DNA from: a virus
Strand: one strand, 5' to 3'
DNA length: 64,000 nucleotides
IMG/VR virus record: IMGVR_UViG_3300044213_000170
Span: 81,401 to 145,400 of that record
In this document: in pieces, positions 30,351 through 50,300 of the stretch
Layout of the letters: every line of letters begins with the position of its first letter
Numbering within the stretch: position 1 is the first letter of the stretch
Notes under the pieces: model-generated
Told to the model about the DNA's origin: nothing
The model's input: the letters and a program-made list of their open reading frames with translations, nothing else
The model's database searches: none
Program-made: the position numbers and the translations under genes

Positions 30351-30426
30351 CTTTGTATTATATTTAGTATTTAGTTTATTATTTATAGTCAATTTGACTA
30401 TAAATACAATATATTTGGGACCAGAT

Positions 30427-31811: not shown

Positions 31812-33629
31812 ATGGCTTATCAATCTTTTTTTTATGATCAACAAATACGTAGATACATTATCCAATTTATCAGGATACTAAGCAATCTACAAGTGGAATT
31901 TGGCAAGGATCGAAACGGGGTAACTGCTTTACAACGTGTACCGGTCGTCTACGGTGACAGCAGTCGCCAAGTTGCAAGTATTATTCAAAACGGCAGTGAA
32001 AACTATATGAACAGTTTGCCGGCCATGGCCGTTTATATAGGCGGGTTCGAGTACGACCGAGGCCGAGTTATGAATCCCACATATGTAGATAAGCTGAATC
32101 TCCGAGAAAGAATATATGATCAGCAAACCGGAGAATATGGCACTACCCAGGGCGATACATATACAGTCGAACGATTAATGCCAGTCCCTTATAAATTAAC
32201 ATTGAAGGTAGATGTTTGGACTAGTAATACCGAACAAAAATTACAAATTTTAGAACAACTCTGCACATTATTCAACCCAGCACTGGAAATTCAAAGCACA
32301 GATAATTATGTCGACTGGACTAGTATCACTTATATTTTACTGACTGGTGTCAATTGGAGTAGTAAACCTGTTCCTACCGGTACTGATTCTCCTCAAGTTG
32401 AAACTGCATCACTGACGTTCGAGCTACCGATGTTTTTAAGTGCTCCGGCCTTGGTTAAAAAATTAGGAGTCATACAAAAAATTGTGGCCAATTTGTACGA
32501 TGCTAACGGAGATATCAACAATGCAATCTACAATGAAGGTAATTTATTATCCCGCCAATATTTTACTGTATTGAATTATGGTATAATACTATTAGAAAAT
32601 AGAATCAAATTGGTGCCTACAACCAATCACGTAATAGATAGATTGGGTGAACAAATCGTCAAAGAAGTAACCGAAGATATAAAAAATAACGTGTCTGTTG
32701 CCTTAACAGATACCGTGGGATTAGAACCAGGTATGTTTATTAGGGGCCTATCTATTACCGGTGCTGGCAATATCACTACTTCGATTGGTAGCACCATTGT
32801 TAATGGTATTCAAACTAACTTTTTATCCGATTTAACCCCGAATGTAGTATTATATCATGACGGAAATAGAGTTGGCACTGTAAGTTCTATTTCTAGTAAT
32901 ACCGAACTAATATTAACTGCAAATAGTCTAATAGATGTAACAACCTCAAATACGTTTACTTACACAGACCATTTTACAACGTATACAGGAAATGTAACTA
33001 TATCAAATATTTCCGGTGATGTTGTTCGATCTACTGGTCGTATTACTGCAAATATCGGAGATAAAATTGCATTTACCAGCTATCCCGAACAACTAGGTGA
33101 TGATCCGCAGTGGCGAAATGTAATAAATGTTTACGGTAATCTAGTCAACGGTTCTAGTAGAATTAGCGTGGAATTAGATTCCGGCGCAGAAATAGTAGGC
33201 ACAGTGGCATATAATCCGTACGATGCAACTGTATTGTTATGGAATCCTGATTTGGATACTATTCCAACAAATACCTTAGACCCGATTAATGCCATCATTG
33301 ATCCAATGTCTAGCAGACCTAATAGAGATTTACAAAATCTAGTAGAAGGTACCAGATACCTGTTGGTCAATGACTATATAACAGCCGCAGGCGAACAGCC
33401 AATTTATAACTGGATGGGGGTTGACAATACTCCGCTGATAGCGTATGCTAACGATATTATTCAATATCATGGCAATCACTGGATCGTTGCGTTTAAAAGC
33501 GATAGCGAACCAACTACGCAATACGTTACAAATATGACCACTGGTATCCAATATAAATGGGACGGAAGTCAGTGGACTAAGAGTTATGAGGGGTTTTACC
33601 CTGCAGGAAAATGGCAACTAATACTATAA
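31812..33629 (+). CDS. Tail sheath stabiliser/terminator (T4 gp15-like) with C-terminal extension
   Basis: FFYDQQIRRYI; VPVVYG; MPVPY; QILEQL..LFNP. Confidence 0.85.
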   Translation: MAYQSFFYDQQIRRYIIQFIRILSNLQVEFGKDRNGVTALQRVPVVYGDSSRQVASIIQNGSENYMNSLPAMAVYIGGFEYDRGRVMNPTYVDKLNLRERIYDQQTGEYGTTQGDTYTVERLMPVPYKLTLKVDVWTSNTEQKLQILEQLCTLFNPALEIQSTDNYVDWTSITYILLTGVNWSSKPVPTGTDSPQVETASLTFELPMFLSAPALVKKLGVIQKIVANLYDANGDINNAIYNEGNLLSRQYFTVLNYGIILLENRIKLVPTTNHVIDRLGEQIVKEVTEDIKNNVSVALTDTVGLEPGMFIRGLSITGAGNITTSIGSTIVNGIQTNFLSDLTPNVVLYHDGNRVGTVSSISSNTELILTANSLIDVTTSNTFTYTDHFTTYTGNVTISNISGDVVRSTGRITANIGDKIAFTSYPEQLGDDPQWRNVINVYGNLVNGSSRISVELDSGAEIVGTVAYNPYDATVLLWNPDLDTIPTNTLDPINAIIDPMSSRPNRDLQNLVEGTRYLLVNDYITAAGEQPIYNWMGVDNTPLIAYANDIIQYHGNHWIVAFKSDSEPTTQYVTNMTTGIQYKWDGSQWTKSYEGFYPAGKWQLIL

Positions 33630-34042
33630 ACCAAGGGTGTGGCAGTTTAATTTACTGTACATCTACCCATCGATATCTATTTTTATTACGTAACAACGGC
33701 AAAACTAAAAACACGTGGGGGCTTGTTGGTGGCAAAATCGAAGCCGGAGAATCGATTCAAGACGGCTTAATCAGAGAGATTCGAGAAGAATTGGGCGGAG
33801 AAATTCGTGATGCTAAAATAATACCCATAGAAAAGTATACTAGTGATAATAATAAATTCGTATACCACACATTCCTAATTAAAGTGGAGCATGAATTTAT
33901 TCCGTACTTAAACAATGAACATAAAGGCTACTGTTGGGTTCCGTTAGATGACTATCCGAAACCGTTACATCCCGGTGTTTATAAAACAATAAAAATAGAA
34001 CGTAACAGATCGAATATTATTCAAGAAACATCAGTTGATTGA
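33611..34042 (+). CDS. Nudix hydrolase
   Basis: GGKIEAGESIQDGLIREIREELG Nudix box. Confidence 0.92.
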   Translation: MATNTINQGCGSLIYCTSTHRYLFLLRNNGKTKNTWGLVGGKIEAGESIQDGLIREIREELGGEIRDAKIIPIEKYTSDNNKFVYHTFLIKVEHEFIPYLNNEHKGYCWVPLDDYPKPLHPGVYKTIKIERNRSNIIQETSVD

Positions 34043-34578
34043 GACGACTGTTTAGTAAAAAATAATTGTATACTAATTCTAGGTTCAGGTGCAGCTAAAG
34101 TAACCATTGTGGTTGAATGCCAGACTGGCGGTTTGAACCAAGCCATACTATTATGATAAGGGAATATCCACCCCTGTTTTCCGGGCATTTCAGGATCATC
34201 ATATAAAAATAATCCTCCCCAGTTCCAATTCCAATTTCGATTTAAATAAATGGTGCTACTTAATCGATTTGTATCTTCTGGTGCATCATGATGCCAGTTA
34301 ATTTGACTGCCGGGCGGCCATATATGCATAAACACCGTTAAATTATCCATGTTGCCAAAATCTTCATGGACTTCATTTGCATATTTTTCCCAAAAATAGT
34401 TTTTATATTGGTCTAATGGTAAAACAAAGACTCCGCTGTATGCCCCAGTCTCGAGTCCTTCTCCCCATCTACCCATATAATTAATTTCGAAACTAGCTGA
34501 ACCTTTTTTACTGGCTAGGTAGTCATGAAATTCGTTTACTTTGTCCGACTCTAAAAAATTATATCTATTATAAATCAT
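34021..34578 (-). CDS. 2OG-Fe(II) oxygenase, prolyl-4-hydroxylase-like
   Basis: WHHD; IYLN..W...WGG; WHS; RISIQ. Confidence 0.88.
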   Translation of the reverse strand: MIYNRYNFLESDKVNEFHDYLASKKGSASFEINYMGRWGEGLETGAYSGVFVLPLDQYKNYFWEKYANEVHEDFGNMDNLTVFMHIWPPGSQINWHHDAPEDTNRLSSTIYLNRNWNWNWGGLFLYDDPEMPGKQGWIFPYHNSMAWFKPPVWHSTTMVTLAAPEPRISIQLFFTKQSSQSTDVS

Positions 34579-34587
34579 GTTTTTTAT

Positions 34588-35145
34588 TTACCACTGGGTG
34601 CTGATAAAGAATAACTGAAATAATCTACCGTCATTTATATCTGTACCAAAATAATCTAAACTACTATGAAAGATATTTCCTCTATACATTGCTAATCGAT
34701 TATACTTATTACCTATTTTATCAACTAAGTCCCACTTTGTCATGTCCTGGGATTCGTATAATCGATCTCCCATTTCGTCTGATGTCAATGCGCCCGTTGC
34801 TTTGTGGCGAAATAATCCTGTGCCCCCTGTTACAGGTGCATCGGGAGTTAAGTAGCAAACTGCGGCCCACGTATTATGATGGTCACTATGTATCCAGCTA
34901 CGATCCTGTGCAGTAGTTAACTGAAAGCTACCAGTGAAACCATCCGTGTCGTGCCAATTGGTTACTTCTCCGCCGTGATTCCAGAGGATAGTTTGAATAG
35001 CATCTTTAAGACTTTGATCTAAGAAACTTTTAGTTCTACTACCCGGATAGTTGCCCGAAATGGTGAATTCTTGTGCTATTGCAAAATTCCTAACTTGATC
35101 AGGATTGCTATAAAAATCATCTACTACGATTACATTAGTTTTCAT
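34588..35145 (-). CDS. 2OG-Fe(II) oxygenase-like (DUF6445-type)
   Basis: VVDDFY.NPD; YPG.R; WIHSD; YNRL; FHS; RLFQLFF. Confidence 0.75.
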   Translation of the reverse strand: MKTNVIVVDDFYSNPDQVRNFAIAQEFTISGNYPGSRTKSFLDQSLKDAIQTILWNHGGEVTNWHDTDGFTGSFQLTTAQDRSWIHSDHHNTWAAVCYLTPDAPVTGGTGLFRHKATGALTSDEMGDRLYESQDMTKWDLVDKIGNKYNRLAMYRGNIFHSSLDYFGTDINDGRLFQLFFISTQW

Positions 35146-35935
35146 TGAAAAATTTCCCTTCTATTAGACTTTCTATTCTTTGATGTATACTATTTTCCCA
35201 GTACGGTCGAGATAAATTATAATTTTCTTCGATGTAAGGTAACATTTTATTGTAATCATCGGGTTGAAGATTGTCGAATATTTTTTCTAATTCTTCAATC
35301 GTATTGAATTGCAATATTCCATTTATATTAAAATATTTATCTATATTTGTACACCCGTAATATATTGGAACTGTTTTTGTTGCAAAACAATCTAATAATT
35401 TTTCGCTGTACATATTTGGCATTACTTGGTTCTCAGTGACGATATGGAATTTAGCATTAGTAAAGAATGAATTTTTATCAGCAACCCGAGGAGGACTACG
35501 ATGCCAATACCAGTCAAATGGTCCTATATTTGTTTTTTTTCCAAAACGATCCATGATCATAAAACGCATCCGATGTTCTTTAGTCCATATTTTACTACTC
35601 ATCAAAAATGTTATTTGATCTTTTTTGTCTAATATTAAACCACTATCAACCCACGTGCCTACTGGACAAAATTCTTGGCTATTAGGTAGTGTTAAAATCC
35701 TGGGATCGTATGCTAATATCAAATCGTAGTTTGTGTGGTGTTGTTGCACCATTTGCCAAAAGTCTAAATATAATGCAGGAGGTTCGCACTGAACTAATAC
35801 ATTGATATCTGCTGTGGCATCTGCATAAACATTATCAAAACAAATACTTACTTTCTTAGGAAATAATTTTGTAAACCCGTGATTAAAGTGGCCGCTATAG
35901 CCGGGCAAATATCCAATTTGGTTAATGACCCACAT
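35135..35935 (-). CDS. Glycosyltransferase family 10 (fucosyltransferase-like)
   Basis: KFHIVTEN...YSEKLLDCF...VPIYYG. Confidence 0.85.
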   Translation of the reverse strand: MWVINQIGYLPGYSGHFNHGFTKLFPKKVSICFDNVYADATADINVLVQCEPPALYLDFWQMVQQHHTNYDLILAYDPRILTLPNSQEFCPVGTWVDSGLILDKKDQITFLMSSKIWTKEHRMRFMIMDRFGKKTNIGPFDWYWHRSPPRVADKNSFFTNAKFHIVTENQVMPNMYSEKLLDCFATKTVPIYYGCTNIDKYFNINGILQFNTIEELEKIFDNLQPDDYNKMLPYIEENYNLSRPYWENSIHQRIESLIEGKFFNEN

Positions 35936-35936
35936 A

Positions 35937-36794
35937 TTATCCTGCTGTTTTTATAATTCTACTAACTTGTTTAATTGTATTGCTAAACACAATCGCAGCA
36001 TTGCTGAAATTACTATCCCTACAAACTAATCCGCCGCACCGCGCAAGAGTCATTGCTTCCATAAAACTTTCTTGCCAATATTTCTTTCGAAAGAACATAT
36101 CATATTCCCAACCCCACTGCGTTATGCCTGTTATTTGTTCAGTAGGTAATCTTAGTAAATTAGGATAATAACAAATTATACTACGATATCTGTTCTCCAT
36201 CTTAACAAGACTCTCTACATTATCTGTAGATACATATAGACGTTCGTATATCCCAGTCTCAAGTTCTTTATCAATGGCCTTACAGTAATCTTCATAAGTC
36301 ACTGTACCATAATTTGTTTGGGCCGCCATGGTAGTCATTCTGACATGAGCGCCCAATACTTTTTCATTTATACGAACCAATTTACATAAGTCATCTACTC
36401 GTGTTGTTATTTCGTTTTGTATATGAATTTTATTCAACACTCTTTTATAATCCGCTAACCGTGGACTGTTTTCAATAGAATCTAATCCGCTATACGTTTT
36501 ACCAATAGGTAAAAATCCCCCGTCAACGTAACTGGAATCTATTTTCTGATCCAATACATAATTCATTATATGTTCGTATGGTTTTTCGATTCCGTACATC
36601 TCCATTGTTGAGCGATTACGAACGATATGAGCTACTGCTTCTTGTAAGAATTCGTCGTCATTTGTATGTTCACTGAATGGGCTTAATCGAAGTACCACAT
36701 TATCAAACTCTATATCCGCTAGGGGGATAATTCCGGATTGTAAAAAACGGCTAAATGGACCGCCGCCAGGCATTGTAAAAATATAATTACGCAT
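35937..36794 (-). CDS. NodZ/O-fucosyltransferase-like glycosyltransferase
   Basis: LGAHVR; LYVSTD; LARC..LV...SNFS. Confidence 0.75.
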   Translation of the reverse strand: MRNYIFTMPGGGPFSRFLQSGIIPLADIEFDNVVLRLSPFSEHTNDDEFLQEAVAHIVRNRSTMEMYGIEKPYEHIMNYVLDQKIDSSYVDGGFLPIGKTYSGLDSIENSPRLADYKRVLNKIHIQNEITTRVDDLCKLVRINEKVLGAHVRMTTMAAQTNYGTVTYEDYCKAIDKELETGIYERLYVSTDNVESLVKMENRYRSIICYYPNLLRLPTEQITGITQWGWEYDMFFRKKYWQESFMEAMTLARCGGLVCRDSNFSNAAIVFSNTIKQVSRIIKTAG

Positions 36795-37617
36795 TTTTAG
36801 TTATCGAATATTTGTCAAAGATATCACTGATAGCATCGATATAGAAAATATCATTACTTTGACCGAATGTTAGGTTAAAATATTTAGTTGCTGTAGAGTC
36901 TATCGGAACTTTTGCCGATGGGCGATAATAATCATTATTATTGTTTATCTGCTCGGCAGGGAAACCTAACATCGATAAAATTTGATTACCCATGTGAAAT
37001 ACCAAATCAGTCGTAGGATGGTTGGTGCTATCAAAAAGATTTGTTTTAGTAAAATTATCTGCAATATAATCAACAACTTTAATATCAGTAATTAGCTCCT
37101 TCAGCTTGAGATACTTGATGTCCGCATCAAATCGTTGTTTATACAAAAAATCAATTTGATTATTAAGATACTGCTGGATAATTTGATTTTTAGTTAGACC
37201 GCGATCAATTAAATCGGTGATGGGTTTTTGGTTGCCTACTATCGATCGTAATGGTTGATTGAAATTATCTGAACTATCTATGGTTGTAGTTACTAGTATA
37301 GGCCAAAAAGATTTTACTAATATATATGGAATAGTTATGGATTTAGCAGAAGATTTTAGAAACGGTTGAATACTTTTTGTAGAATTACCACCGTACTCGT
37401 CCCCAAGTGGCTGATGTATAAAAAGATCTGCCTTTTTTAAATTTGCGAGATGATCCGACCAAGTCAAAAACGATCTGTTAGCTCTTATTAAATCATAATT
37501 CTGTACTACATCTACTATTTGATATTCATTAGTAAACTGCGTCGACTGCATAAGGACGTCATAGATCATTCTTCCTTGGCAAGTAGCATATATCAACGCA
37601 ATTTTTTTCTGAGTCAT
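36787..37617 (-). CDS. WcbI-family polysaccharide biosynthesis protein
   Basis: YATCQ; ADLFIHQP; LF.S.NHP. Confidence 0.7.
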   Translation of the reverse strand: MTQKKIALIYATCQGRMIYDVLMQSTQFTNEYQIVDVVQNYDLIRANRSFLTWSDHLANLKKADLFIHQPLGDEYGGNSTKSIQPFLKSSAKSITIPYILVKSFWPILVTTTIDSSDNFNQPLRSIVGNQKPITDLIDRGLTKNQIIQQYLNNQIDFLYKQRFDADIKYLKLKELITDIKVVDYIADNFTKTNLFDSTNHPTTDLVFHMGNQILSMLGFPAEQINNNNDYYRPSAKVPIDSTATKYFNLTFGQSNDIFYIDAISDIFDKYSITKNA

Positions 37618-37620
37618 AAT

Positions 37621-38589
37621 TTATAGTGTGTTCATCCAATGATCGATCATTTCGTCAATCATTGATTCAAATGTGTATTTTGGTTTCCAATTTAATTGTT
37701 GGCGAATATCAGTGCTGTCGCCACGAAGATATCTAAGTTCTTCTGGTCGCATGAATTTTTCATTCTGGACTACATAGTCCTCATAATTCATACCCAATGA
37801 CTTGAAGGTATATTCACATAATTCTCTCACCGTGTGACTTTCACCAGTGGCCACTACCCAATCCCTTGCTTCGGCATTATTTGTAATTGCATGGATGGCA
37901 CGAACATAATCATAGCTATGACCCCAATCTCGGCTGCTATCCATATTACCTAATTCTAATGTATTTGTTAACCCTTTTTTAATTTCAACCGCAGTTTTAA
38001 CAACTTTATTAGTAACAAAATTGGTGCCTCGACGCGGGCTTTCATGATTGAACAAAATACCATTACAAGCATGAAGTTTATAAGCGGCACGATAATGTCT
38101 TGTTAAATTAAAAGCCGCTAGTTTACTGATTCCATACGGGCTTACTGGCACCATCGGAGTAGTTAATCGTTGTGTTTGATCTGGATCGATACTGTTACCA
38201 AACATTTCGCTGGAACTGGCTTGATAATATTTTGCTTCAGGGCATAGTTGCCTGTAATAATCAAGCATATACAAAACACCCATGGTATTTGTTTGTAGGG
38301 CAAATGCAGGCATATCAAAGCTGATACGAACATGACTCATTGCACCCAAGTTATAAATCTCGTCCGGTTTCACTTTAGAAATAACTTCGTGTAAACTCAG
38401 CGGATCCGTTAAGTCTCCGTAATGTCGAGTAATATCCTCATTAATTTTTTCTAGTCTAGAACTTTGATTTTCGGGCACACTGTGTCTGCGAACAATGCCG
38501 TGAACTTCATACCCGAGTTCTAGTAGATATTCTGATAGATAACTACCATCTTGTCCGGTAATACCTGTTATTAGTGCTTTTTTTGTCAT
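37621..38589 (-). CDS. gmd: GDP-mannose 4,6-dehydratase
   Basis: ALITGITGQDGSYL; YQASSSEMFG; GILFNHESPRRG; RDWG. Confidence 0.97.
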   Translation of the reverse strand: MTKKALITGITGQDGSYLSEYLLELGYEVHGIVRRHSVPENQSSRLEKINEDITRHYGDLTDPLSLHEVISKVKPDEIYNLGAMSHVRISFDMPAFALQTNTMGVLYMLDYYRQLCPEAKYYQASSSEMFGNSIDPDQTQRLTTPMVPVSPYGISKLAAFNLTRHYRAAYKLHACNGILFNHESPRRGTNFVTNKVVKTAVEIKKGLTNTLELGNMDSSRDWGHSYDYVRAIHAITNNAEARDWVVATGESHTVRELCEYTFKSLGMNYEDYVVQNEKFMRPEELRYLRGDSTDIRQQLNWKPKYTFESMIDEMIDHWMNTL

Positions 38590-38590
38590 T

Positions 38591-39286
38591 TTATTTCTTC
38601 CATAATTTCTTTTGACTCAGATCTGAATAATTTTCATATCCGCCACAATCTGGTGTATCTTCTGCTACTTGGTCCATTAATATAATACCCCGAGCTGCAT
38701 CCTCCGGGGTCATATACATATGCCAACCACAAATGTCTGTATCATCATCCCATTGGCTTACTGCCATATCTCTGCCGTCATATCTGGCCTTAACTAACCA
38801 ATCGTAAGCATCTTTGTCGTCTGTTAGTATCATTCCGCCTCGTCCGATTGGGATACGTTTTTTGATTTGGAAACTGACCACATGAAATCCGCCGGCATAC
38901 ATTCCTTTTTTCCAACGTGTTGCTGCATCCCATATAGGATAAGGTTTAAGTTGATATATACCCGACCATTGTTCATCTCTGAATGTAGGATTACAGCCTG
39001 CGTGGCGTATATTCATTGGAACACTCTGATATGTTTGTTTAGGAATCTCTACGTCTCCTGTAGCATTCAAATACTTTAAACTCAAAAATAAACCGTTAGT
39101 GCAACAATCAACACTTATTCCATATTTTGCACCTGCGAATTCGGCCACTTTCTGTTCAAATATTTCAACTACATCGCGAGGGTCATTCCAATTATATCCT
39201 AACTGTTTAACTAAATCAAGTTCTGGGCGTTGAAATTCTTTCGGTAATTTGCCCGATGGCCAACTATTAAATGGGTTTGTTGTCAT
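38591..39286 (-). CDS. DegT/DnrJ/EryC1/StrS sugar aminotransferase (short form)
   Basis: FEQKVAEF.GAKY; SFQIKKRIPIGRGGMI. Confidence 0.85.
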   Translation of the reverse strand: MTTNPFNSWPSGKLPKEFQRPELDLVKQLGYNWNDPRDVVEIFEQKVAEFAGAKYGISVDCCTNGLFLSLKYLNATGDVEIPKQTYQSVPMNIRHAGCNPTFRDEQWSGIYQLKPYPIWDAATRWKKGMYAGGFHVVSFQIKKRIPIGRGGMILTDDKDAYDWLVKARYDGRDMAVSQWDDDTDICGWHMYMTPEDAARGIILMDQVAEDTPDCGGYENYSDLSQKKLWKK

Positions 39287-39806
39287 AATGATATCCTAGT
39301 TTTTCTGCGTATTCATATGATTTGTAAGAATCGCGAGTCTTAATTGGTTTTGCTGGATTACCGACATATATGGTCCAGGGCATTGTGTCTTCTTTAAGTA
39401 AGCTGTTAGCGCCTAGAACACTACCTTCGGCCATTGTGACTCCTGGCAGTATTACACTGTTAGCTAATGCTCCGCTAAATCTTCTTAAAGTAATTGCGGC
39501 AAGATGTTGCTGTTCTTTATACTCATCCGGTATGAGTGGTCCTACTAGGCCCTGCCCAACGAATGTTTCACTTCCGCATACATACTTACTTCCAACGCTC
39601 ATAAAACAAAAATCTTCTACAATCAGTCCTGTAGTTTTCCCGCCTATAACAGCAACGTGAGGACTAACGTGTACATAATCACCTATTGTCAGCTGAGTGG
39701 TACAATAAAAAAAACTGTCTATTGCTACTCGATTACCAATTTTAATTAATTCGGGTCTTCGAAATTCTGCACTTGGGCTGATATAAACATCACTGCCAAC
39801 TATCAT
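39267..39806 (-). CDS. Hexapeptide-repeat acyltransferase
   Basis: Left-handed beta-helix repeats; VILPGVT...VLGANS; YVGNPA. Confidence 0.88.
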   Translation of the reverse strand: MIVGSDVYISPSAEFRRPELIKIGNRVAIDSFFYCTTQLTIGDYVHVSPHVAVIGGKTTGLIVEDFCFMSVGSKYVCGSETFVGQGLVGPLIPDEYKEQQHLAAITLRRFSGALANSVILPGVTMAEGSVLGANSLLKEDTMPWTIYVGNPAKPIKTRDSYKSYEYAEKLGYHYDNKPI

Positions 39807-40213
39807 AAAAATGCCTTGTCCATTGCCTGGCCTTGGTATGGCCCTGTTTTATATTCGTAAACTACGGTATCATCTTCAAGAATCAAATAAGTATGACCGC
39901 CTTCGAAGGTCATGCTACAATCACCTTGATTAATAATTACTTTTTCAAGTAAGGCTCCGTTGGTGTCAAATAAACTACATTCCACACTGCCTTTTATAAC
40001 TACCCAAGATTCTTGAGCAATGACTTGGGGTCTTGGTGCAGGTTTCCAGATGTGCTGATGTGGTTTAAAAGTTTTTCCTTTTTCCATTCTCAATGTTGCC
40101 AATTGGATAAATTGATCTTCTGGGGCAACTTCGGTCCTGTCACTGATTTCTTCATATCTGTGAACAATGTGTAATAATTTTTGAGGGTCAATTTTACTGT
40201 AAATTTTATACAT
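39803..40213 (-). CDS. Cupin (WbuC-like)
   Basis: PHQH...QE..VV.KG...GGH...EYKTGPY; start refined. Confidence 0.75.
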   Translation of the reverse strand: MYKIYSKIDPQKLLHIVHRYEEISDRTEVAPEDQFIQLATLRMEKGKTFKPHQHIWKPAPRPQVIAQESWVVIKGSVECSLFDTNGALLEKVIINQGDCSMTFEGGHTYLILEDDTVVYEYKTGPYQGQAMDKAFL

Positions 40214-41261
40214 GATAAAAATCCATATGTTTAAGTTTTTGTAACCAAGTATCAAATTGTTTATGCACTACTTCGTCACTGAATTTACTCTCTGCCCACT
40301 CTCTGCAAGCACGAGGATTTATATTTTTTATGTTGTTTCCTGCTTCTAGAAAAGTTTTAAAGTCTTTGCATCGATAACCGGTGACACCTTGTTGTACAGT
40401 ATCAACAAATCCGCCCCAATCTGTGGTTATCACTGGCGTCCCCGATAGCATAGCTTCTACTACAATATTCCCAAACGGTTCTATATAATGTGTTGCGGCA
40501 ATCAAACAACTTGCTTTTTTTAACAGTTCTTTTCTTTGTTCAACGTTAACATAACCAACACATTCTACGTGAGCAGGAATGCTTGCATACCCCAAGTCTT
40601 GAAGACTGCCGGGTCCTGCAATTACTAATTTTTTACCTAATTTTTCTGTAATTTGAATTGCCAAATGTATGCCTTTATCTTGGCTTATTCTGCCCAAATA
40701 AACAAAATAATCCTCTTTGTCATCACAGAATTCAAACTCATTCACCGTGAACGCATTAGGAATCACTGCGTCCCACCAACTGGGTTGCAACATTTGTTGG
40801 TAAAGTCCATTGTAGTAATGCATTTGGCTATAACTAGTAAATCCCTTGTATGGTGCAAACACACACTCTAATAGATAACCTATACTAGGTTCCACTATTT
40901 TTAAATCCATGTGCTCTTTTACTGCTGCTTGATGACTTATTCCATAAAAGCAAAGAACCATATCACCGGGTTGTTTAACTTTATGTAATCGATCACTGAC
41001 CCTATTGCAAAACAGTTGAGTATATGCAGGGTGTTCTTTCATCATTGCACCTTCATGAGGTGGCGGTAATTCTTTGTTAGTTATTGCCGAAAAGTGCTCA
41101 CAATCCACTTCGCTACTTTCATGACCGTAATGAATCATATTATAGTCATATTGCTTCATATTTTCAATGAATTTGCTTACTGCGATATTAAATGGCTCCA
41201 TCCTATATTTAGGATTAGTTATGCCGTAAGGGTTTGCTAATATATGTAAAGTCTGTGTCAT
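40206..41261 (-). CDS. Glycosyltransferase family 4
   Basis: LGRI..DKG; EPFGNIVVEAMLSGTPVI. Confidence 0.92.
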   Translation of the reverse strand: MTQTLHILANPYGITNPKYRMEPFNIAVSKFIENMKQYDYNMIHYGHESSEVDCEHFSAITNKELPPPHEGAMMKEHPAYTQLFCNRVSDRLHKVKQPGDMVLCFYGISHQAAVKEHMDLKIVEPSIGYLLECVFAPYKGFTSYSQMHYYNGLYQQMLQPSWWDAVIPNAFTVNEFEFCDDKEDYFVYLGRISQDKGIHLAIQITEKLGKKLVIAGPGSLQDLGYASIPAHVECVGYVNVEQRKELLKKASCLIAATHYIEPFGNIVVEAMLSGTPVITTDWGGFVDTVQQGVTGYRCKDFKTFLEAGNNIKNINPRACREWAESKFSDEVVHKQFDTWLQKLKHMDFYHV

Positions 41262-41345
41262 ACTATTTGATTATAGTACTATTTACTCTATAATTCAATT
41301 GGATTTTTGAATTTCTTGTTACCTATATGTTCGAATTTTTAATCA

Positions 41346-41379
41346 AAAAAAAGTAACGCTACCGAAGTAGCGTTACTTA
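41346..41379 (-). terminator. Intrinsic terminator after the collagen gene
   Basis: AAGTAACGCTAC-TTCG-GTAGCGTTACTTTTTTT. Confidence 0.9.
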
Positions 41380-41416
41380 GAGCTTATGTTATGTTAGATA
41401 ACAATCCAACTTTGGA

Positions 41417-44400
41417 TTATAGTCTACCAATAACAACCTCGATGATGCCTGTTGTGCCGTTAAAGTCCTCTAGGGCTTTACCGATTACAGTACCAATCTT
41501 TGGATTAGCTTCAGCACGGGCCATTCCGTTACCAGCTGCAACCATCATATCACCTTTGCGTACTGTGCCTGTTACAAAACATGGTACACGACCGTGTAAT
41601 GCAACATCAGCTACGTACTCTGCATCCAACTCACTGTTCATTAAGTAAGATGGATTTGTAGTGATAACCCCTGCTACAGTTGTTACCATATCTTCAGCCG
41701 CTAATGTAACTTCATTAGTACCTCCGAAGCAAACTACTGTACCTGGTTGATAACGAGCATCTGCTACATAACGCTCTGCCAAGTCAGCGTAACGAGCGTT
41801 AACTGCTGTAACGTTTAATACGTTTGTACTTGGATTATAGTAGAAGCTACTAGCACCGTAAGCAGTTTGGTTAGAACCAGTCGCGCTTACAAATACTGGA
41901 TAGTAGTTTGCGTTTGTAGTTGTTGCTGTTGCGTTGATAATAGTGCTTGGACCTGCTGGACCTTGTGCACCAGTTGCACCTGTTGGACCTTGTGGACCTT
42001 GTGGACCTGTTGGACCTTGTGCACCTGTTGCACCTGTTGCACCTGTTGCACCTGTTGCACCTGTCGGACCTTGTGGACCTTGTGGACCAGTTGAACCTTG
42101 TGCACCTGTTGCACCTGTTGGACCTTGTGGACCTTGTGGACCAGTTGGACCTTGTGCACCTGTTGCACCTGTTGCACCTGTCGGACCTTGTGGACCTTGT
42201 GGACCAGTTGAACCTTGTGCACCTGTTGCACCTGTTGGACCTTGTGGACCTTGTGGACCAGTTGAACCTTGTGCACCTGTTGCACCTGTTGCACCTGTTG
42301 GACCTTGCGGACCTTGTGGACCAGTTGAACCTTGTGCACCTGTTGCACCTGTTGGACCTTGTGGACCTTGTGGACCAGTTGAACCTTGTGCACCTGTTGG
42401 ACCTGTTGCACCTGTTGCACCTGTTGGACCTTGTGGACCTTGTGGACCAGTTGAACCTTGTGCACCAGTTGCACCTGTTGGACCTTGTGGACCTTGTGGA
42501 CCTTGTGGACCAGTTGCACCAGTTGAACCAGTTGCACCAGTTGCACCAGTTAGACCTTGTGGACCTTGTGGACCTTGTGGACCAGTTGAACCTTGTGCAC
42601 CAGTTGCACCTGTTGGACCTTGTGGACCTTGTGGACCTTGTGGACCTGTTGCACCTTGTGCACCTGTTGGACCTGTGCTACCTGTTGCACCCTGTGGACC
42701 TTGTGGACCTTGTGGACCTTGTGGACCTGTTGCACCTGTTGCACCTGTTGGGCCTTGTAGACCTGTTGCGCCAGTTGCACCCTGTGGACCTTGTGGACCT
42801 TGTGGTCCTTGTGGTCCTGTTGCACCAATTGGACCTTGCGGACCTGTACTACCTGTGTTACCAGTTGGACCCTGTGGACCTTGTGGACCTTGTGGACCAG
42901 TTGAACCTTGTGCACCTGTTGGACCTTGTGGACCTTGTGGACCAGTTGAACCTTGTGCACCTTGTGGACCTTGTGGACCTTGTGGACCTGTGCTACCAGT
43001 TGCACCTGTAGGACCTTGTGGACCTTGTGGACCAGTTGAACCTTGTGCACCTGTTGCACCTGTTGCACCTGTTGGACCTTGTGGACCTTGTGGACCAGTT
43101 GAACCTTGTGCACCTGTTGCACCTGTTGGACCTTGTGGTCCTTGTGGACCTTGTGGACCTGTGCTACCTGTTGCACCTTGTGCACCTGTTGGACCTTGTG
43201 GACCTTGTGGACCAGTTGAACCTTGTGCACCTGTTGGACCTTGTGGACCTGTACTACCTGTTGGACCTTGTGGTCCTTGTGGACCTTGTGGACCTGTGCT
43301 ACCTGTTGCACCTTGTGCACCTGTTGGACCTTGTGGACCTTGTGGACCAGTTGCACCTGTATTACCAGTTATACCCTGTGGGCCTTGTGGACCTTGTGGA
43401 CCTTGTGGACCTTGTGGACCAGTTGAACCTGTATTACCAGTTATACCCTGTGGGCCCTGTGGACCTTGTGGACCTTGTGGACCTTGTGGACCTGTTGCAC
43501 CTTGTGCACCTGTTGGACCTTGTGGACCTGTTGCGCCAGTTGGACCTTGTGGACCTTGTGGACCTTGTGGACCAGTTGAACCTTGTGCACCTGTTGGACC
43601 TTGTGGACCTTGCGGACCAGTTGAACCTGTATTACCAGTTATACCCTGTGGGCCTTGTGGACCTTGTGGACCTTGTGGACCTTGTGGACCAGTTGCACCT
43701 GTATTACCAGTTATACCCTGTGGGCCCTGTGGACCTTGTGGACCTTGTGGACCTTGTGGACCTGTTGCACCTTGTGCACCTGTTGGACCTTGTGGACCTG
43801 TTGCGCCAGTTGGACCTTGTGGACCTTGTGGACCTTGTGGACCTGTTGCACCTTGTGCACCTGTTGGACCTTGTGGACCTGTTGCGCCAGTTGGACCTTG
43901 TGGACCTTGTGGACCTTGTGGACCAGTTGAACCTTGTGCACCTGTTGGACCTTGTGGACCTTGCGGACCAGTTGAACCTTGTGGACCTTGTGGACCTTGT
44001 GGACCAGTTGAACCTTGTGCACCTGTTGGACCTTGTGGTCCTTGTGGACCTTGTGGACCAGTTGAACCTTGTGCACCTGTTGGACCTTGTGGACCTTGTG
44101 GACCTTGTGGACCTGTGCTACCTGTTGCACCTTGTGCACCTGTTGGACCTTGTGGACCTTGTGGACCAGTTGAACCTTGTGCACCAGTTGCACCTGTTGG
44201 ACCTTGTGGACCTTGTGGACCAGTTGAACCTTGTGCACCTGTTGGACCTTGTGGACCTTGTGGACCAGTTGAACCTTGTGCACCTGTTGGACCTTGTGGG
44301 CCAGTTGAACCTTGTGCACCTGTTGGACCTTGTGGACCTTGTGGACCTGTTGCGCCAGTTGGACCTTGTGGACCTTGTGGACCAGTTGCACCTGTATTAC

Positions 44401-46780
44401 CAGTTACACCCTGTGGACCTTGTGGACCTTGTGGACCTTGTGGACCTGTTGCACCTTGTGCACCAATTGGGCCTTGTGGACCTTGTGGACCAGTTGCACC
44501 TTGTGCACCAATTGGGCCTTGTGGACCAGTTGCACCTTGTGCACCTGTTGGACCTTGTGGACCAGTTGCACCTGTTGGGCCCTGTGGACCTTGCGGACCT
44601 GTCGAGCCTTGTGCACCAGTTGCACCAGTTGCACCTTGTGCACCTGTTGGGCCTTGTGGACCTTGTGGACCTGTATTACCCTGTGGGCCAGTTGGACCTT
44701 GTGGACCAACAACACCTTGTGGACCTTGTGGACCTTGTGGACCTGTATTACCCTGTGGGCCAGTTGGACCTTGTGGACCAACAACACCTTGTGGGCCCTG
44801 TGGACCTTGTGGACCTGTGTTACCAATCGGGCCTTGTGCGCCTTGTGCGCCTGTGTTACCCTGTGGGCCCTGTGGGCCTTGTGGACCTGTGTTACCAATT
44901 GGACCTTGCGGACCAGTAGCACCTGTTGGACCTTGCGGACCAGTAGCACCTGTCACACCCTGTGGACCTTGTGGACCTTGTGGACCTTGTGGACCAATTG
45001 CTTGGATTTGACTATATGTTGCACCGTCATTGGTAAATTCCCAATGCTTTGCAGATTCATTCCAACGTAATTGTACCGCAGCATCGTCGCCGCGCATTAC
45101 TCGGATGCCTGCGTTCATTGTTGGGGTACCTGTAGTGAAATCGCTGTTCAAATCAACAATATTATCTGCGACACTTAATGTAGTAGAATGAACTGTAGTT
45201 GTTGTACCGTTAACAGTTACGTTACCACTGATAACCAAATCGTCATTAACAACAACACGACCTGAACCAGGTGCAGTTAATGTTAAGTCAATATTTGCAC
45301 TACTTGTAAGCTGATTGGTATGAATTCCTGTACTAAATGTAATAGGATTGCCATCGGTTGATGTGAAATTTTGACCACCTTCTAACTGCAATGTACCTGC
45401 AATTTGAACCGTTGTGCCGGTTGATCCTAACTGTAATACGCCTGTTCCCGATGTAGAAATACGTATATTTTGGTCAAGATCGGCAGTAAAGTTCATTGTC
45501 GAATCTGTACTATGAAGAACTTCAACTCCATTAACATATAAAGAACCGGGACCCACATATACATCTTTCCACTGATGTGATAAGCTACCTAAGCTGTAAG
45601 TAACGTTTGCACTTGGTATAATGTTACCATCAAAGTTTGACATATATACTTTCGTTGCACCGTTTGCCCCAGCATTAACAGTATTAATTGCGGCTGCTAA
45701 ACTGCTTTCAGCAGCTTCAGCACGACTTGTTTCTGCAACAATATTAGTTGCATTTGTTGCAATCGAGCTTGCTAAACTACTTTCTGCACGTTCAGCACGT
45801 GTAACTTCTGTGGAAACTGCAGCACCTAAACTACTTTCAGCAGCTTGTGCACGACTTGTTTCTACTGCTACATCAGCGGTAATAGCTGTACTTAAATTGC
45901 TTTCAGCGGCTTGTGCACGGCTTGTTTCTACTGCTACTGCGGCAGTAATAGCACCTGCTAAACTACTTTCAGCAGCTTGTGCACGACTTGTTTCTACTGC
46001 TACATCAGCGGTAATAGCTGTACTTAAATTGCTTTCAGCGGCTTGTGCACGGCTTGTTTCTACTGCTACTGCGGCAGTAATAGCACCTGCTAAACTGCTT
46101 TCAGCGGCGTGTGCACGACTTGTTTCTACTGCTACATCAGCCGTGATAGCTGTACCTAAACTACTTTCAGCGGCTTGTGCACGACTTGCCTCTACTGCCA
46201 CTGCGGCAGTAATAGCACCTGCTAAACTGCTTTCAGCTGCTTCGGCGCGACTTGTTTCCGCTAAAACATCAGCACTGAATGCAAGACTGTTATTATTAAC
46301 AGTTAATGTGCCAGATGCATCGCGTAATGTAAGTGTACCAATACCAACGCTGGAAGCCGCATTAATGGCAGGTGCAAAAACCGAAGTAACTGCAAAGAAA
46401 ATTGCAGTACCTGTAGTTGCTTGTGTTAATTCGATCTTTGCTGTATTGTTGTCAACTATTACAATGTTTGCAACCAATAAGTTATGATGTGAATCATAAA
46501 CAAAATATGCAAAGTTTGTAGTGTCGAAATTATGTGTAACGGTCCATTCTGTACTTGCTGTACCCTGGGTATGGACATAAGCAGTTTGCTTACTTCCAAT
46601 TGGAACCCAAGTAAAAGTACCTGATCCGCTCACCAATTCGGCCCACAAGTATAGTTGCCCTTCTTTCAGCACCATTGTATATGGTGCGGGATCCGCAGGA
46701 AAGCCTGAAGCGTTAACTTCGAATACGATGTTACCGTTCATTGCTAAGTCTGACAGAACTCTAACTTGTTCGTTAGCCAT
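41417..46780 (-). CDS. Collagen-like fibre protein with coiled-coil repeats and a C-terminal autocleaving chaperone-like domain
   Basis: 339 Gly-X-Y triplets; C-terminal YADLAERY...VALHGRVP...IGKALE. Confidence 0.9.
41945..44995 (-). repeat. Collagen Gly-X-Y repeat (9-bp units, e.g. GGTCCACAA)
   Basis: 3051 nt of [15 protein letters not shown] triplets. Confidence 0.97.
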
Positions 46781-47321: not shown

Positions 47322-50300
47322 TTATAAACCTGCCATACTTACGACGGACACCTTAATATTGCGAGCTTCTGTTAAGAACAATGTTAAGCGGTTAGAAGAA
47401 GTTTCTTCTACGCTTACAATATCGTTTCTCCAAGAACCATCGTCACGCTGTACTAAGATTGTGAACGTCACAAACGTTGCCCCCAAGTTATGGTTGATAA
47501 CGTGTGTTGTAGCAGCAGTTACTGACTGATATGTATAAATTAACGCATCGTAGTCAGAACGGATCTTAGCTTCTGCGGCTGTTGCACGATAAACTTCCGA
47601 ACTCAATGCAGTGCTGCTTGCTAACAAGTTGATTTCGCCTTGTAAGCTAGATTCAGCTGCTTGAGCACGTGAAACTTCACTTGCTAAGTCCGAAGAAACT
47701 ACCCTGATTGCAGAACTTAAACTGCTTTCAGCACCCTGTGCACGTGTTACCTCAACACCTAAGTTGTTTACTACAGAAGTAATGTTGTTCTGTAATGTAT
47801 ACTCAGCTGCTTGAGCACGTGTAACTTCGTTATTAACGTTAGTTTGTACTGTTGCGATACTATTAGCTAAACTTGTTTCAGCTGTAGTTGCACGGTTAAC
47901 TTCAGTTGTTAAATCGCTTGCTACGCCAGCAATATACCCTGCTAAACTGCTTTCGGCACTTTCAGCACGTGTTACTTCAGTGTCTAACTTAGACTGTACT
48001 GTTGCAACACTATTTGCTAAACTGCTTTCTGCTGTTTGAGCACGTGTAACTTCTGCGTTAATTGCGGAAGTATTATTGCTGATTAAACCAGCTAAACTTG
48101 TCTCGGCAGCTTTTGCGCGAGCAACTTCATTGCTGATATTTGTAGCATTTGTACTAATATCATATGTATTTGTTAATACATTTGCAGCAATGCTGTTTTC
48201 AGCGGATGTTGCACGACTTTGTTCAGCAGCAATCGAACTAGATAACGAACTTTCAGCGGCTTGTGCGCGGGCAATTTCGTCTGCCAATAATCTACTCGAA
48301 CCAGTATACAACTCATTGATTGCACTAACGATATTACTGTGAGCAGTTGTATCTAATAATGCTAAATCACCAATCTGAGACTGTAATGTACCTTCAGCTG
48401 TTGTGGCACGTGTTACTTCGTGATCAATGTTATTTTGTAATGTTGCTTCTGCGGCTTCTGCGCGAGTAGCTTCATTATTTACATTGGTCTGAACAGTAGA
48501 AATATCAGCAGCTAAACTTGTTTCTTCGGCTTTAGCACGAACAACCTCAGTTGCTAAATCAGCAGCTACACCGGACATCGAACTTGCTAAACTACTTTCA
48601 GCAGCTTTAGCACGAACAACTTCAGTATTTAAGTTAGTTTGAACTGTTGCAATAGCACCAGCTAAACTACTTTCTGCACGTTCAGCACGTGTTACTTCAG
48701 TATCTAAGTTAGATTGAACTGTTGCAACGCTATTTGCTAAACTGCTTTCTGCTGTTTCGGCACGTGTAACTTCGTTATTAATTGCAGTTGTATTACTTGC
48801 AATTAAACCAGCTAAACTTGTCTCAGCAGCATTTGCGCGGCTTACTTCAGCAGCTACTGTACCAGCGATACTTGCTTCTGCAGTTTGAGCACGTGTTACT
48901 TCTGCACTAATTGCGGCAGCATTTGAGCTATCACCAGCAATACGAGCAGTTGTTTCTGTGCTTAACTCACCAGCTAAACTTGTTTCCTCGGCTTTAGCAC
49001 GAACAACTTCAGTTGCTAAATCAGCAGATACACGGGAAATCGAACTTGCTAAACTGCTTTCAGCAGCTTCTGCACGAACAACTTCAGCACTTACTGTACC
49101 AGCAATACTTGTTTCAGCAGATTCTGCGCGAGCAGTTTCATTACTGATAGCTGTTACATTTAATGCAATAGCAGCAGCCATCGATGCATCGTCAATAGCA
49201 TTTTGTGCTTTCATTGCATAGTAATCTGTGCTTAATGCACTTAAATCACCAGCAATACTTGCTTCTGCGCCAGTTGCACGTGTTACTTCTGCGCTTACGC
49301 TAGATGCAATACTTGCTTCTGCATTCTGAGCACGTGAAACTTCTGCGCTAATTGCAGCAGCATTTGAGCTTTCAGCAGCTTCTGCACGAACAACTTCAGC
49401 ACTTACTGTACCGGCAATACTTGCTTCTGCAGCTTTGGCGCGGCTTACTTCGGCATCAATATTGTTTTGCAATGTTGTTTCCGCAGCTTCTGCACGAGCA
49501 GTTTCATTACTGATAGCTGTGTTAGTTGCAGCAACATTAGCAGAAATTGCTTGTTCAGCAGTTTGAGCACGTGTTACTTCAGCACTTAACTCACCAGCAA
49601 TACTTGTTTCGGCAGCTTTAGCGCGAACAACTTCAGCAGTTACTGTACCAGCAATACTTGCCTCTGCAGCAGTTGCACGATTTACTTCTGCACCAATTGC
49701 AGCAGTATTTGAGCTTTCTGCGGCTTTAGCGCGAACAACTTCAGCAGCTAATGCTGATGCATTTGAGCTGTCACCAGCAATACGAGCGTTAGTTTCTACA
49801 ACTAAATCACCAGCAATGCTTGTTTCAGCAGCTTTAGCACGAACAACTTCAGCACTTAACTCACTGGCAATACTTGTTTCGGCTGCTTTAGCACGAACAA
49901 TTTCAGCGCCTAAGTCACCAGCAATACTTACTTCAGCGGCTGTTGCACGGCTTACTTCAGCAGTTACTGTACCAGCAATACTTACTTCAGCGGCTGTTGC
50001 ACGGCTTACTTCAGCAGTTACTGTACCAGCAATGCTTGCTTCTGCGTGTTGAGCACGTGTTACTTCAGCAGCTAAGGCTGTTGCATTTGAGCTGTCACCA
50101 GCGATACGAGCGTTAGTTTCTACAACTAAATCACCAGCAATGCTTGTTTCAGCAGCTTTAGCACGAACAACTTCAGCACTTAACTCACCGGCAATACTTG
50201 CCTCGGCACCAGTTGCACGTGTTACTTCTGCGCTTACGCTAGATGCAATACTTGCTTCTGCATTTTGAGCACGAGTTGCTTCCGCAGCAGTTGCAGCAGC

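Follow-up and report, generated by a model that had tools for sequence, protein, structure and literature searches.

Ten genes for soluble enzymes adjoin a collagen-like tail-fibre gene in an uncultured freshwater giant phage

We analyzed a window of 64,000 nucleotides (positions 81,401 to 145,400 of IMG/VR record IMGVR_UViG_3300044213_000170) from an uncultured freshwater giant phage, whose own contig (G000) measures 145.4 kb and is 42% complete. Inside the fibre and tail module, ten contiguous minus-strand ORFs (34021-41261) with intergenic gaps of −20 to +9 nt lie downstream of the gene for a 1787-aa collagen-like tail fibre (41417-46780, minus strand), at a distance of 155 nt. This agrees with a preliminary description of the locus, which had placed ten co-oriented, contiguous genes directly downstream of a collagen gene. 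The far border of the block is a convergent gene for a NUDIX hydrolase (33611-34042, plus strand; phrog_1198, 3e-27). The gene order of the block is kept in 17 of 17 related contigs, all from close relatives, where the block is always flanked by a fibre gene on one side and, at the same border as here (17/17), by the NUDIX gene on the other. The interval between these two flanking genes is a variable island that ranges from ten genes in this phage to 20 or more in relatives, some of which have sulfo-, methyl- and carbamoyl-transferases added to the block.

The fibre protein (PF01391, 2.5e-151; PHROG tail-fibre families) starts with a beta module followed by Ser/Thr/Ala-rich coiled-coil repeats, continues with 339 unbroken G-X-Y triplets (residues 596-1612) and ends in a globular domain; its C-terminal 190 aa match phrog_19602 'tail fiber protein' (8e-7). 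The X positions of the triplets include 197 Pro, 89 Ala and 32 Ser residues, and the Y positions 182 Gln and 148 Thr. Throughout the 339 triplets charged residues are absent, Lys among them, and Y is never occupied by Pro, all 197 Pro residues being located at X, so that the composition given earlier (Pro at X, Thr or Gln at Y, no charge) was found again. The proposed link to Thr-rich collagens was not supported, as the block does not track Thr at Y: in close relatives the collagens adjoining the full block have Thr at only 2-19% of the Y positions, and the Thr fraction does not differ between block-adjacent and non-adjacent collagens (0.39 versus 0.45). The phage's own contig carries three collagen-like genes, only one of which adjoins the block.

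Several genes of the block, all on the minus strand, encode enzymes of a putative amino-sugar pathway. The gene at 37621-38589 specifies a GDP-mannose 4,6-dehydratase (Gmd; PF16363, 2.2e-108), which scores 359 bits against TIGR01472 (2.1e-107), under the equivalog cut-off of 415 bits. Gmd is the sole PF01370 match across the entire 145.4-kb contig, which extends the earlier remark that fcl is absent. It is followed upstream by a short DegT-family aminotransferase of 231 aa (38591-39286; PF01041, 7e-16) in which the Schiff-base Lys and the DAA motif are conserved, while the C-terminal domain and some 55 internal residues are absent. This protein aligns in two blocks to perosamine synthetase (3bn1/3dr7) and to 2po3, and its best matches are C4 aminotransferases. 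The short form recurs in every relative (17/17; 230-239 residues as translated, including the stop), and its homologues in the ESM Atlas fall into virus-only clusters. The next gene encodes an AntD-like N-acyltransferase of the left-handed beta-helix (hexapeptide) type (39267-39806; PF00132), which matches the PDB 3vbi/3vbn series with 1.6e-26 over residues 2-159, the next match being QdtC (1.6e-9); 3vbn is AntD of the Bacillus anthrose pathway (PMC6031040). In relative L013, the same slot is occupied by a formyltransferase (Formyl_trans_N). Taken together, Gmd, a putative C4 aminotransferase and an N-acyltransferase support a predicted route to a GDP-N-acyl-perosamine-type sugar, in which the identities of the sugar and of its acyl group would follow from the enzyme families. 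The logic of this pathway had been put forward before, and it is strengthened because the closest solved relative of the acyltransferase is AntD and because one relative has a formyltransferase in its place. A WbuC-family cupin of 137 aa (39803-40216; TIGR04366, 1.3e-12, above the cut-off with 42 bits), for which we used the ATG common to the relatives (the ORF list begins at a TTG at 40255), possibly has a role in sugar tailoring; a PDB search with it returned spurious designed repeats only. A WcbI-family polysaccharide-biosynthesis protein (36787-37617; PF18588, 7e-25) occupies a variable slot: of 80 related loci, only two (L032 and L034) contain it, and other relatives have an unrelated 253-aa ORF without a Pfam match at this position.

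The block also encodes three glycosyltransferases. The gene nearest to the fibre gene specifies a retaining-type GT4 enzyme with a GT-B fold (40206-41261; PF00534, 3e-22; phrog_3408, 2.9e-76), the profile of which matched 7fg9 (1.7e-28) and a BH4 glucosyltransferase (8e-20) in the PDB. Its family is nearly phage-only, with one related locus among 185,579 species genomes. The ORF at 35937-36794 has no Pfam match, and none of its 104 homologues has a name. A profile of 28 homologues (A1) compared with the PDB gave 11 matches, all of them fucosyltransferases (FUT8 0.011, POFUT2 0.03, NodZ 0.07), its ESM Atlas neighbours are FUT8_N_cat/NodZ/O-FucT proteins (score 0.96), and it contains a GVHVR motif; we classify it as a FUT8/NodZ/POFUT-like glycosyltransferase (GT23/GT65-68 kind). 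The third transferase is GT10-like, of the alpha1,3-fucosyltransferase type (35135-35935; PF00852, 2e-5, barely above the cut-off), and its profile (A5) matched 2nzw, the H. pylori alpha1,3-FucT (9.3e-10), and 5zoi (1.5e-9). Two of the three transferases are thus of kinds that use GDP-sugars, as had been anticipated.

Of the two 2OG-Fe oxygenases previously assigned to the block, one could be substantiated. The protein encoded at 34021-34578 belongs to the P4H-family 2OG-Fe(II) oxygenases (PF13640, 8e-10) and has the invariant residues H96-H-D98, H154 and R167-x-S169 (HxD...H...RxS); its PDB matches are weak (9blq, 9e-4; 9ei6, 'prolyl 4-hydroxylase alpha subunit domain', 1.5e-3). The protein encoded at 34588-35145 is a DUF6445 protein (PF20043, 3.5e-19; phrog_1644, 1.3e-35), for which searches gave neither a statistical link to 2OG families nor a PDB match. 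Its invariant pattern HxD...H...R (H86-x-D88, H160, R174) makes an Fe/2OG oxygenase possible, and the gene is duplicated in 14 of 17 relatives. Collagen prolyl 4-hydroxylases act on X-Pro-Gly, with Pro at Y, a substrate that occurs at 0 of the 339 Y positions, and family searches of the ten block proteins revealed no PLOD-like lysyl hydroxylase domain. The known collagen hydroxylase specificities would have no substrate in this collagen domain because it has neither Lys nor Pro at Y, which speaks against the suggested hydroxylation of the fibre by such specificities.

We observed that the association of GT4 with collagen-like genes extends well beyond the close relatives. Of 80 viral loci with a GT4-family gene, 27 have a collagen-like ORF no more than 1 kb away from it. 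Among 66 distinct GT4 rows, 23 were collagen-adjacent, 10 had a collagen-like ORF near, 18 had none and 15 were untestable; the 18 without one, of 51 testable distinct loci, refer to the fetched stretch, which extended at most 10 kb to either side. A within-locus permutation predicted adjacency in 3.75 of 51 clusters, whereas 12 show it (p of about 4.5e-5, with no correction for shared ancestry), and adjacency occurs in both deep clades. In many divergent loci, the two genes abut at 46-235 bp on the same strand. A 338.5-kb relative has only five collagen ORFs, one of which abuts GT4, and in Synechococcus phage S-CAM7 a GT4 with 39% identity follows two collagen-like genes and is itself followed by another GT-like gene and a 2OG oxygenase. 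In the collagen-less loci, GT4 stands among sugar-nucleotide genes. The recurrence of GT4 beside collagen-like genes across deep divergence supports the earlier interpretation, and the 18 of 51 testable loci with no collagen-like ORF in the fetched stretch weaken it. The gene arrangement is more than chance, because its order is kept in 17 of 17 relatives and because the GT4-collagen adjacency exceeds the permutation; the adjacency may be due in part to a shared hypervariable fibre region.

Transcription signals were found between the fibre gene and the block. An intrinsic-terminator-like hairpin with a 12-pair stem, a TTCG loop and a T8 tail (41351-41378, minus strand) directly follows the fibre gene, and a comparable hairpin with a T-run is present in relatives L007, L012 and L015, as judged by eye. 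A promoter-like TTGAAT-17-TATAAT sequence (41270-41298, minus strand; 10/12 match), with a TAAATA box just upstream, ends 8 nt before the GT4 ATG; overall, such promoter-like sites are not more frequent than in shuffled sequences (34 versus 36.5). Of 16 sequences, among them the window, 9 have a TATAAT box no further than about 35 nt from the GT4 ATG. The late-like motif NATAAATA precedes seven structural ORFs, and not GT4. From these signals, the block is predicted to form a separate transcription unit that follows a strong terminator.

None of the ten block proteins has a TM-like segment (maximal KD19 value 1.27). Searches of the phage's own contig and of the 97%-complete relative G001 for lipid-carrier families (PF02397, PF00953, PF04932, PF01943) gave no matches, and no family of initiating phosphoglycosyl transferases, flippases, polymerases or ligases was found in either; host enzymes could stand in for this machinery. 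The block consequently combines virus-encoded transferases with nucleotide-sugar enzymes, all soluble and with no lipid carrier among them. Based on the present data, we propose with a probability of about one half that it is a self-contained soluble glycan unit, the acceptors of which would most likely be the phage's own fibre proteins. Host GDP-mannose would be converted by Gmd to GDP-4-keto-6-deoxymannose, aminated at C4 by the short DegT-type enzyme to GDP-perosamine, and N-acylated by the AntD-like beta-helix enzyme, or N-formylated in one relative. The WbuC cupin and WcbI would tailor the sugar or the glycan. The retaining GT4 and the two inverting GDP-sugar-type transferases (FUT8/NodZ/POFUT-like and GT10-like) would then assemble a short glycan straight on a protein acceptor in the cytoplasm and would need no lipid carrier to do so. 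The P4H-family oxygenase, perhaps together with the DUF6445 protein, would hydroxylate the same or another virion protein. The 1787-aa collagen-like fibre is a likely acceptor, and the Ser/Thr-rich coiled-coil fibres next to it are possible further ones. That the phage glycosylates its own fibres had already been suggested; the pathway, the soluble enzymes and the recurrence of GT4 beside collagen argue for it, and the Thr data, the terminator, the missing late motif and the collagen-less loci argue against it, as do the lack of known hydroxylase targets, the two collagen-like genes of the contig that lie apart from the block, the small-molecule substrates of the nearest solved GT4 relatives and the LPS and capsule origin of many family names.

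The block might instead serve to remodel the host surface, by delivering an N-acyl-perosamine-type sugar into the LPS O-chain, capsule, EPS or S-layer glycan of the host; this would make use of the host's lipid carrier, flippase and ligase and could block superinfection or the sticking of progeny to debris. The Gmd, DegT, WbuC and WcbI families owe their names to O-antigen and capsule pathways, L013 has an FkbM methyltransferase with a weak RfbT-family match (under the cut-off), the cassette-like diversification of the block resembles O-antigen loci, the block is predicted to be a transcription unit of its own with a sigma-70-like site, and it is also retained at loci with no collagen gene nearby. 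Moreover, T4-like aquatic pelagimyophages and cyanomyophages likewise have transferase and deoxysugar genes among their tail-fibre genes and collagen triple repeats in structural proteins; the part of the published account available to us (PMC7029224) reads such genes as modifiers of the host O-chain, without a link to collagen-like fibres. However, the lack of TM-like segments and of lipid-carrier families, the latter even in the 97%-complete relative, the nearly phage-only GT4 family and its positional tie to collagen-like genes all count against host-surface remodelling, and the phage transferases would need to fit lipid-linked intermediates of the host. We consider it somewhat unlikely, yet a serious competitor of fibre glycosylation.

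It is unlikely that the acceptor is a capsid decoration, another fibre, a host protein or a small molecule, with the collagen gene as a mere neighbour in an insertion hot spot. The variable island, with its growth in gene number, would fit such a hot spot, the nearest solved relatives of GT4 act on the small molecules sucrose or tetrahydrobiopterin, the PHROG family of DUF6445 is labelled 'minor coat protein', and the island of L034 is preceded by a non-collagen Peptidase_S74 fibre. Yet the abutment of GT4 and collagen in many divergent loci is hard to attribute to a hot spot alone, and three transferases with an amino-sugar pathway are a large outfit for a small-molecule tag. DNA hypermodification, in which a GDP-derived sugar on a modified phage base would evade restriction, is very improbable: the block sits in the fibre module and not among nucleotide-metabolism genes, PF00303 has no match in the 145.4-kb contig (42% complete), the sole ThyA homologue of G001, although beside an epimerase-family gene (about 257.5-259.4 kb), is about 92 kb away from the block, and we know of no GDP-sugar or perosamine modification of DNA. 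This GT4 does share PDB neighbours with phage DNA glycosyltransferases, which are GT-B enzymes with structural matches including 7fg9, 8x3q, 5ze7/5zfk and 6kih (PMC13326640, Table 1), but the DNA glycosylation described in the available text of that source consists of arabinose, galactose and glucose units, with UDP argued to be the sugar carrier.

The predicted route resembles GDP-perosamine and N-acyl-perosamine O-antigen pathways, in which Gmd is followed by a C4 aminotransferase and an N-acyl or N-formyl transferase, but differs from them in the absence of lipid-carrier steps, the missing C-terminal domain of the aminotransferase and the fibre-module setting. We take PDB 3bn1/3dr4/3dr7 to be the Caulobacter perosamine synthetase and 5vyr to be a WbkC-type formyltransferase. 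In the anthrose operon antABCD of Bacillus anthracis/cereus, a 4-keto-6-deoxyhexose is aminated at C4 and then N-acylated. Like the exosporium glycoprotein BclA of these bacteria, the phage fibre is collagen-like and contains G-X-T triplets (Thr occupies 148 of its 339 Y positions); with antABCD the phage shares a predicted route of C4 amination and N-acylation, and AntD is the nearest solved relative of its acyltransferase. Unlike antABCD, its route would start from GDP-mannose via Gmd, an enzyme that PBCV-1 also encodes, and not from a dTDP-sugar; the aminotransferase is truncated, there are no rhamnose genes, and the transferases are of other families. The collagen-like regions of BclA are densely glycosylated and carry GalNAc-Rha3-anthrose (PMC10050317, available part), whereas the phage acceptor is putative.

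Giant viruses make their own virion glycans, and Mimivirus and chloroviruses likewise combine virus-encoded nucleotide-sugar enzymes with soluble transferases; according to the available part of PMC9614988, giant viruses decorate their own surface, Mimivirus fibril glycans carry viosamine and chloroviruses have capsid glycans. N-acylated 4-amino-4,6-dideoxyhexoses and collagen-like proteins are features of giant viruses that the phage would share. The Mimivirus enzyme L230, a collagen lysyl hydroxylase/glucosyltransferase described there, needs Lys, in contrast to the Lys-free phage collagen and a block without a PLOD-like domain; the phage host is a bacterium, and its sugar route is GDP-based. 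Mycobacteriophages use their own transferases to glycosylate capsid and tail-tube proteins (Freeman et al. 2023, cited in PMC12619734), the glycans being reported at the C-termini of these subunits and not, as proposed here, on fibres; the available portion of that source does not mention a phage amino-sugar pathway.

Tentatively, the proposed glycan unit may provide a fast-diversifying, O-antigen-like coat, built carrier-free on collagen-like and coiled-coil fibres, with an N-acyl- or N-formyl-perosamine cap and with sulfated, methylated or carbamoylated versions in relatives: a 'serotype' system that would rely on a phage-only GT4 family and a truncated DegT aminotransferase, and in which the swapping of cassettes would adjust adsorption, shielding or the stability of the fibres. 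Whichever reading applies, both the short form of DegT and the phage-only GT4 family lend themselves to enzymology. Should the acceptor indeed be the fibres, the viruses that make their own surface glycans (chloroviruses, mimiviruses, mycobacteriophages) would come to include tailed phages infecting aquatic bacteria, with a system that would combine a complete amino-sugar route with a scaffold of collagen. The many 'LPS genes' that T4-like aquatic phages carry in their tail-fibre regions would then be read as virion-coat genes and not as host-takeover genes, and this would explain how charge-free, hydroxyproline-free collagen helices of more than 1000 residues might be stabilised or shielded.

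The ten glycan-related genes (34021-41261, minus strand; gaps of −20 to +9 nt) lie on a linear IMG/VR contig of 145.4 kb, 42% complete according to CheckV, the window being its bases 81401-145400. In minus-strand order, a coiled-coil fibre gene (3419 aa; 47322-57581) comes first, followed by two small ORFs, the gene for a collagen-like fibre of 1787 aa (41417-46780) and the tightly packed block, at whose far border a convergent plus-strand NUDIX hydrolase gene (33611-34042) overlaps the end of the 2OG oxygenase gene by 22 nt. Tail sheath, tube, sheath-stabiliser and fibre families are found on all sides of the block. Near-identical DNA is present in three freshwater metagenome runs (word shares 0.98, 0.82 and 0.36), the first of which may be its source. 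The collagen domain of the 1787-aa fibre (residues 596-1612) consists of 339 G-X-Y triplets without a break, with Pro at 197, Ala at 89 and Ser at 32 of the X positions, and Gln at 182 and Thr at 148 of the Y positions; charged residues, Lys among them, are absent, and Y is never Pro. The preliminary description of this fibre, an uncharged collagen with Pro at X and Thr or Gln at Y, is therefore correct. In a PDB search, solved relatives were found for the collagen part and none for the C-terminal domain. Two other collagen-like genes are located on the contig: one runs off the end of the contig (63211-63999, minus strand; 44% Thr and 48% Gln at Y) and resembles the 1787-aa fibre in its triplets and C-terminal domain, and the other adjoins primase and helicase genes, with glycan genes absent nearby. 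A 121-aa ORF (30099-30464, minus strand) gave a weak, below-cut-off match to an ADP-ribosyltransferase exoenzyme (PF03496, E 0.0025).

Based on sequence, we predict with a probability of about 0.5 that the block glycosylates the fibres of the virion. Among the sugar-pathway genes, Gmd (PF16363, 2e-108) and WcbI are clear family calls. The DegT-like protein (38591-39286, minus strand) has 231 aa versus about 370 aa in solved relatives, and it aligns in two blocks with perosamine synthetase (3bn1, 3dr7) and with 2po3; it retains the Schiff-base Lys together with the DAA motif, and lacks the C-terminal domain as well as about 55 residues from its interior. All 17 relatives have this truncated version, which in the ESM Atlas groups into clusters (85, 55 and 69 members) of viral proteins only; it may represent a minimal PLP-dependent aminotransferase for sugars. 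The hexapeptide acyltransferase has its best solved relative in the 3vbi-3vbp series (1.6e-26, ahead of the next by 17 orders of magnitude), of which 3vbn is described as AntD of B. cereus, the N-acyltransferase used in making D-anthrose (PMC6031040). The AntD-like enzyme recalls BclA, whose collagen-like regions are described as bearing GalNAc-Rha3-anthrose (PMC10050317), and this parallel was weighed in favour of fibre glycosylation. The cupin is a WbuC-family member; its PDB matches were designed repeat proteins alone and were rejected as spurious.

The GT4 call is solid, the closest solved proteins being 7fg9 (1.7e-28), described as an alpha-1,2-glucosyltransferase (PMC13326640), and tetrahydrobiopterin glucosyltransferase (8e-20). 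A bacterial genome scan for this GT4 family returned one uninformative MAG contig; the family is nearly phage-only, which also speaks for an acceptor on the virion. The ORF at 35937-36794 had no match in Pfam. With a 28-sequence profile, its PDB matches were FUT8, POFUT2 and NodZ only (11 of 11, E 0.011-0.073, via a GVHVR motif), and its ESM Atlas neighbours are labelled FUT8_N_cat, NodZ or O-FucT; from these profiles and neighbours it is a putative FucT-like transferase. The GT10 call is weak by Pfam alone (2e-5), and a GT10 profile matches H. pylori alpha1,3-FucT at 9e-10. At two related viral loci (L004:11428-13056 and L006:7470-9086) the GT10-like protein carries an additional N-terminal fusion of about 270 aa, the translated ORFs having 543 and 539 residues (stop counted).

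The last gene of the block encodes a P4H-family 2OG oxygenase whose motif residues are all invariant. The neighbouring DUF6445 protein has an HxD...H...R pattern and is, by this pattern and without a statistical link, a candidate 2OG enzyme: it had no match in the PDB, and hhalign comparisons with 2OG proteins or profiles, three in all, fell short of significance. Among the 120 matches listed of its 2070 homologues, every name is 'hypothetical protein', and a literature search found no paper with the term DUF6445. Known collagen hydroxylases target Lys, or Pro at Y. The earlier suggestion that the phage might hydroxylate its collagen is weakened, the 1787-aa fibre offering no such target (0 Lys, 0 Pro at Y).

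Compared by blastn with phage records, the block yielded short Gmd pieces only (8 records, at most 3% of the query). GT4 relatives at 56-64% identity were found on 17 viral contigs, all of which share the order GT4, WbuC, acyltransferase (present in 16), DegT, Gmd, FucT-like (in 13), X, GT10, DUF6445, 2OG (in 15) and, at the far border of the island, NUDIX. DUF6445 occurs in two copies in 14 of the 17, and the C-terminal domain of the fibre lies upstream in 12. WcbI is found in none of them, and in 2 of 80 loci of the wider set. The variation of the island is cassette-like. At locus L013 the acyltransferase slot is filled by a Formyl_trans_N gene, which matches ArnA, gramicidin F-domains, sugar N-formyltransferases and also WbkC, so that these matches do not fix the nucleotide. 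The same locus has 9 kb of additional genes (an RCC1-repeat protein, a sulfotransferase, FkbM and other methyltransferases); the insert (L013:1111-4485 and L013:5613-9183) lies between the collagen gene and GT4, and the RCC1-repeat protein has 1124 aa. An additional PF13640 oxygenase is present at L019. Ahead of the core block, L034:1-9537 carries a Peptidase_S74 fibre gene, then a second GT4-like gene, methyltransferases, two sulfotransferases and a GT9-like gene, and also a NodU-type carbamoyltransferase and a papain-like protease.

A profile scan for GT4 relatives gave 80 viral loci (36-71% identity), in which we defined collagen-like ORFs as having at least 120 aa and at least 12 triplets in runs of at least 6. 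The expected co-occurrence with collagen genes held in part: GT4 has such an ORF within 1 kb in 27 loci and further away in 14, and none was found in the fetched flank of 19, the remaining 20 being too short. Counted as 66 distinct GT4 rows (window included), 23 are adjacent, 10 near, 18 without and 15 untestable. Both deep clades of a quick tree include adjacent rows (11 of 27 and 12 of 39), and a same-strand gap of 46-235 bp is seen in many distant loci. A like arrangement is seen in Synechococcus phage S-CAM7, where two collagen-like genes precede GT4, which is followed by a GT-like gene, an unrelated 2OG oxygenase gene and then a tail fibre gene. Within-locus permutation gave 12 of 51 clusters adjacent versus 3.75 expected (p ~4.5e-5, with shared ancestry still included). 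A 97%-complete relative of 338.5 kb has five collagen-like ORFs in all, one of which abuts GT4. Counting against the preliminary description, GT4 at loci without a nearby collagen gene is surrounded by genes for methyltransferases, epimerases and full-length DegT proteins. The emphasis of the preliminary description on Thr was not sustained, as in close relatives with the full block Thr takes up 2-19% of the Y positions of the neighbouring collagens. Mean Thr at Y does not differ between adjacent (0.39) and non-adjacent (0.45) collagens, and Thr-specific targeting was therefore dropped as an argument.

Transcription signals also speak against the preliminary reading. A hairpin of 12 pairs, trailed by T8, stands at the end of the 1787-aa fibre gene, after which a promoter-like TTGAAT-17-TATAAT stands 8 nt before the GT4 start; sigma-70-like sites overall were not above shuffles. 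T4-late-like ATAAATA motifs (6405, 12150, 17701, 18215, 21322, 25329 and 47288, minus strand) are located 12-34 nt ahead of seven structural ORFs. The motif is absent before the glycan block, yet a TAAATA-N4/5-TATAAT arrangement recurs there in relatives. The 8-mer TATAAATA was not above chance, and its placement before structural genes is suggestive by position only.

Fibre glycosylation is further favoured by the location of the block in a fibre module, by the recurrent abutment to collagen-like genes and by the solubility of the ten enzymes, none of which has a membrane-like segment. Initiating transferase, flippase, polymerase and ligase families were found neither on the contig itself nor on the 97%-complete relative, and the lack of these lipid-carrier families from both contigs points the same way. 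The enzymes could instead remodel glycans of the host, which we consider less probable but a serious rival; the O-antigen-like content and cassette variation of the block agree with this, as do its organization as a transcription unit of its own and the way in which comparable pelagimyophage genes have been interpreted in print (PMC7029224). Another acceptor is less probable again. Glycosylation of DNA is very improbable: phage DNA transferases are described with the same PDB neighbours as GT4 (PMC13326640), but a ThyA-type base synthase is absent from the 42%-complete contig and the copy in the relative lies ~92 kb from the block. That ThyA-family gene (2e-110) adjoins an epimerase-family gene (~257.5-259.4 kb of the relative), and the two may form a separate nucleotide or DNA-modification pair.

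For the fibre glycosylation preferred here, a literature search that covered few subscription journals found no description of glycans on collagen-like fibres of phages. Virion glycans made by the virus itself are described in giant viruses (PMC9614988) and in mycobacteriophages (PMC12619734).
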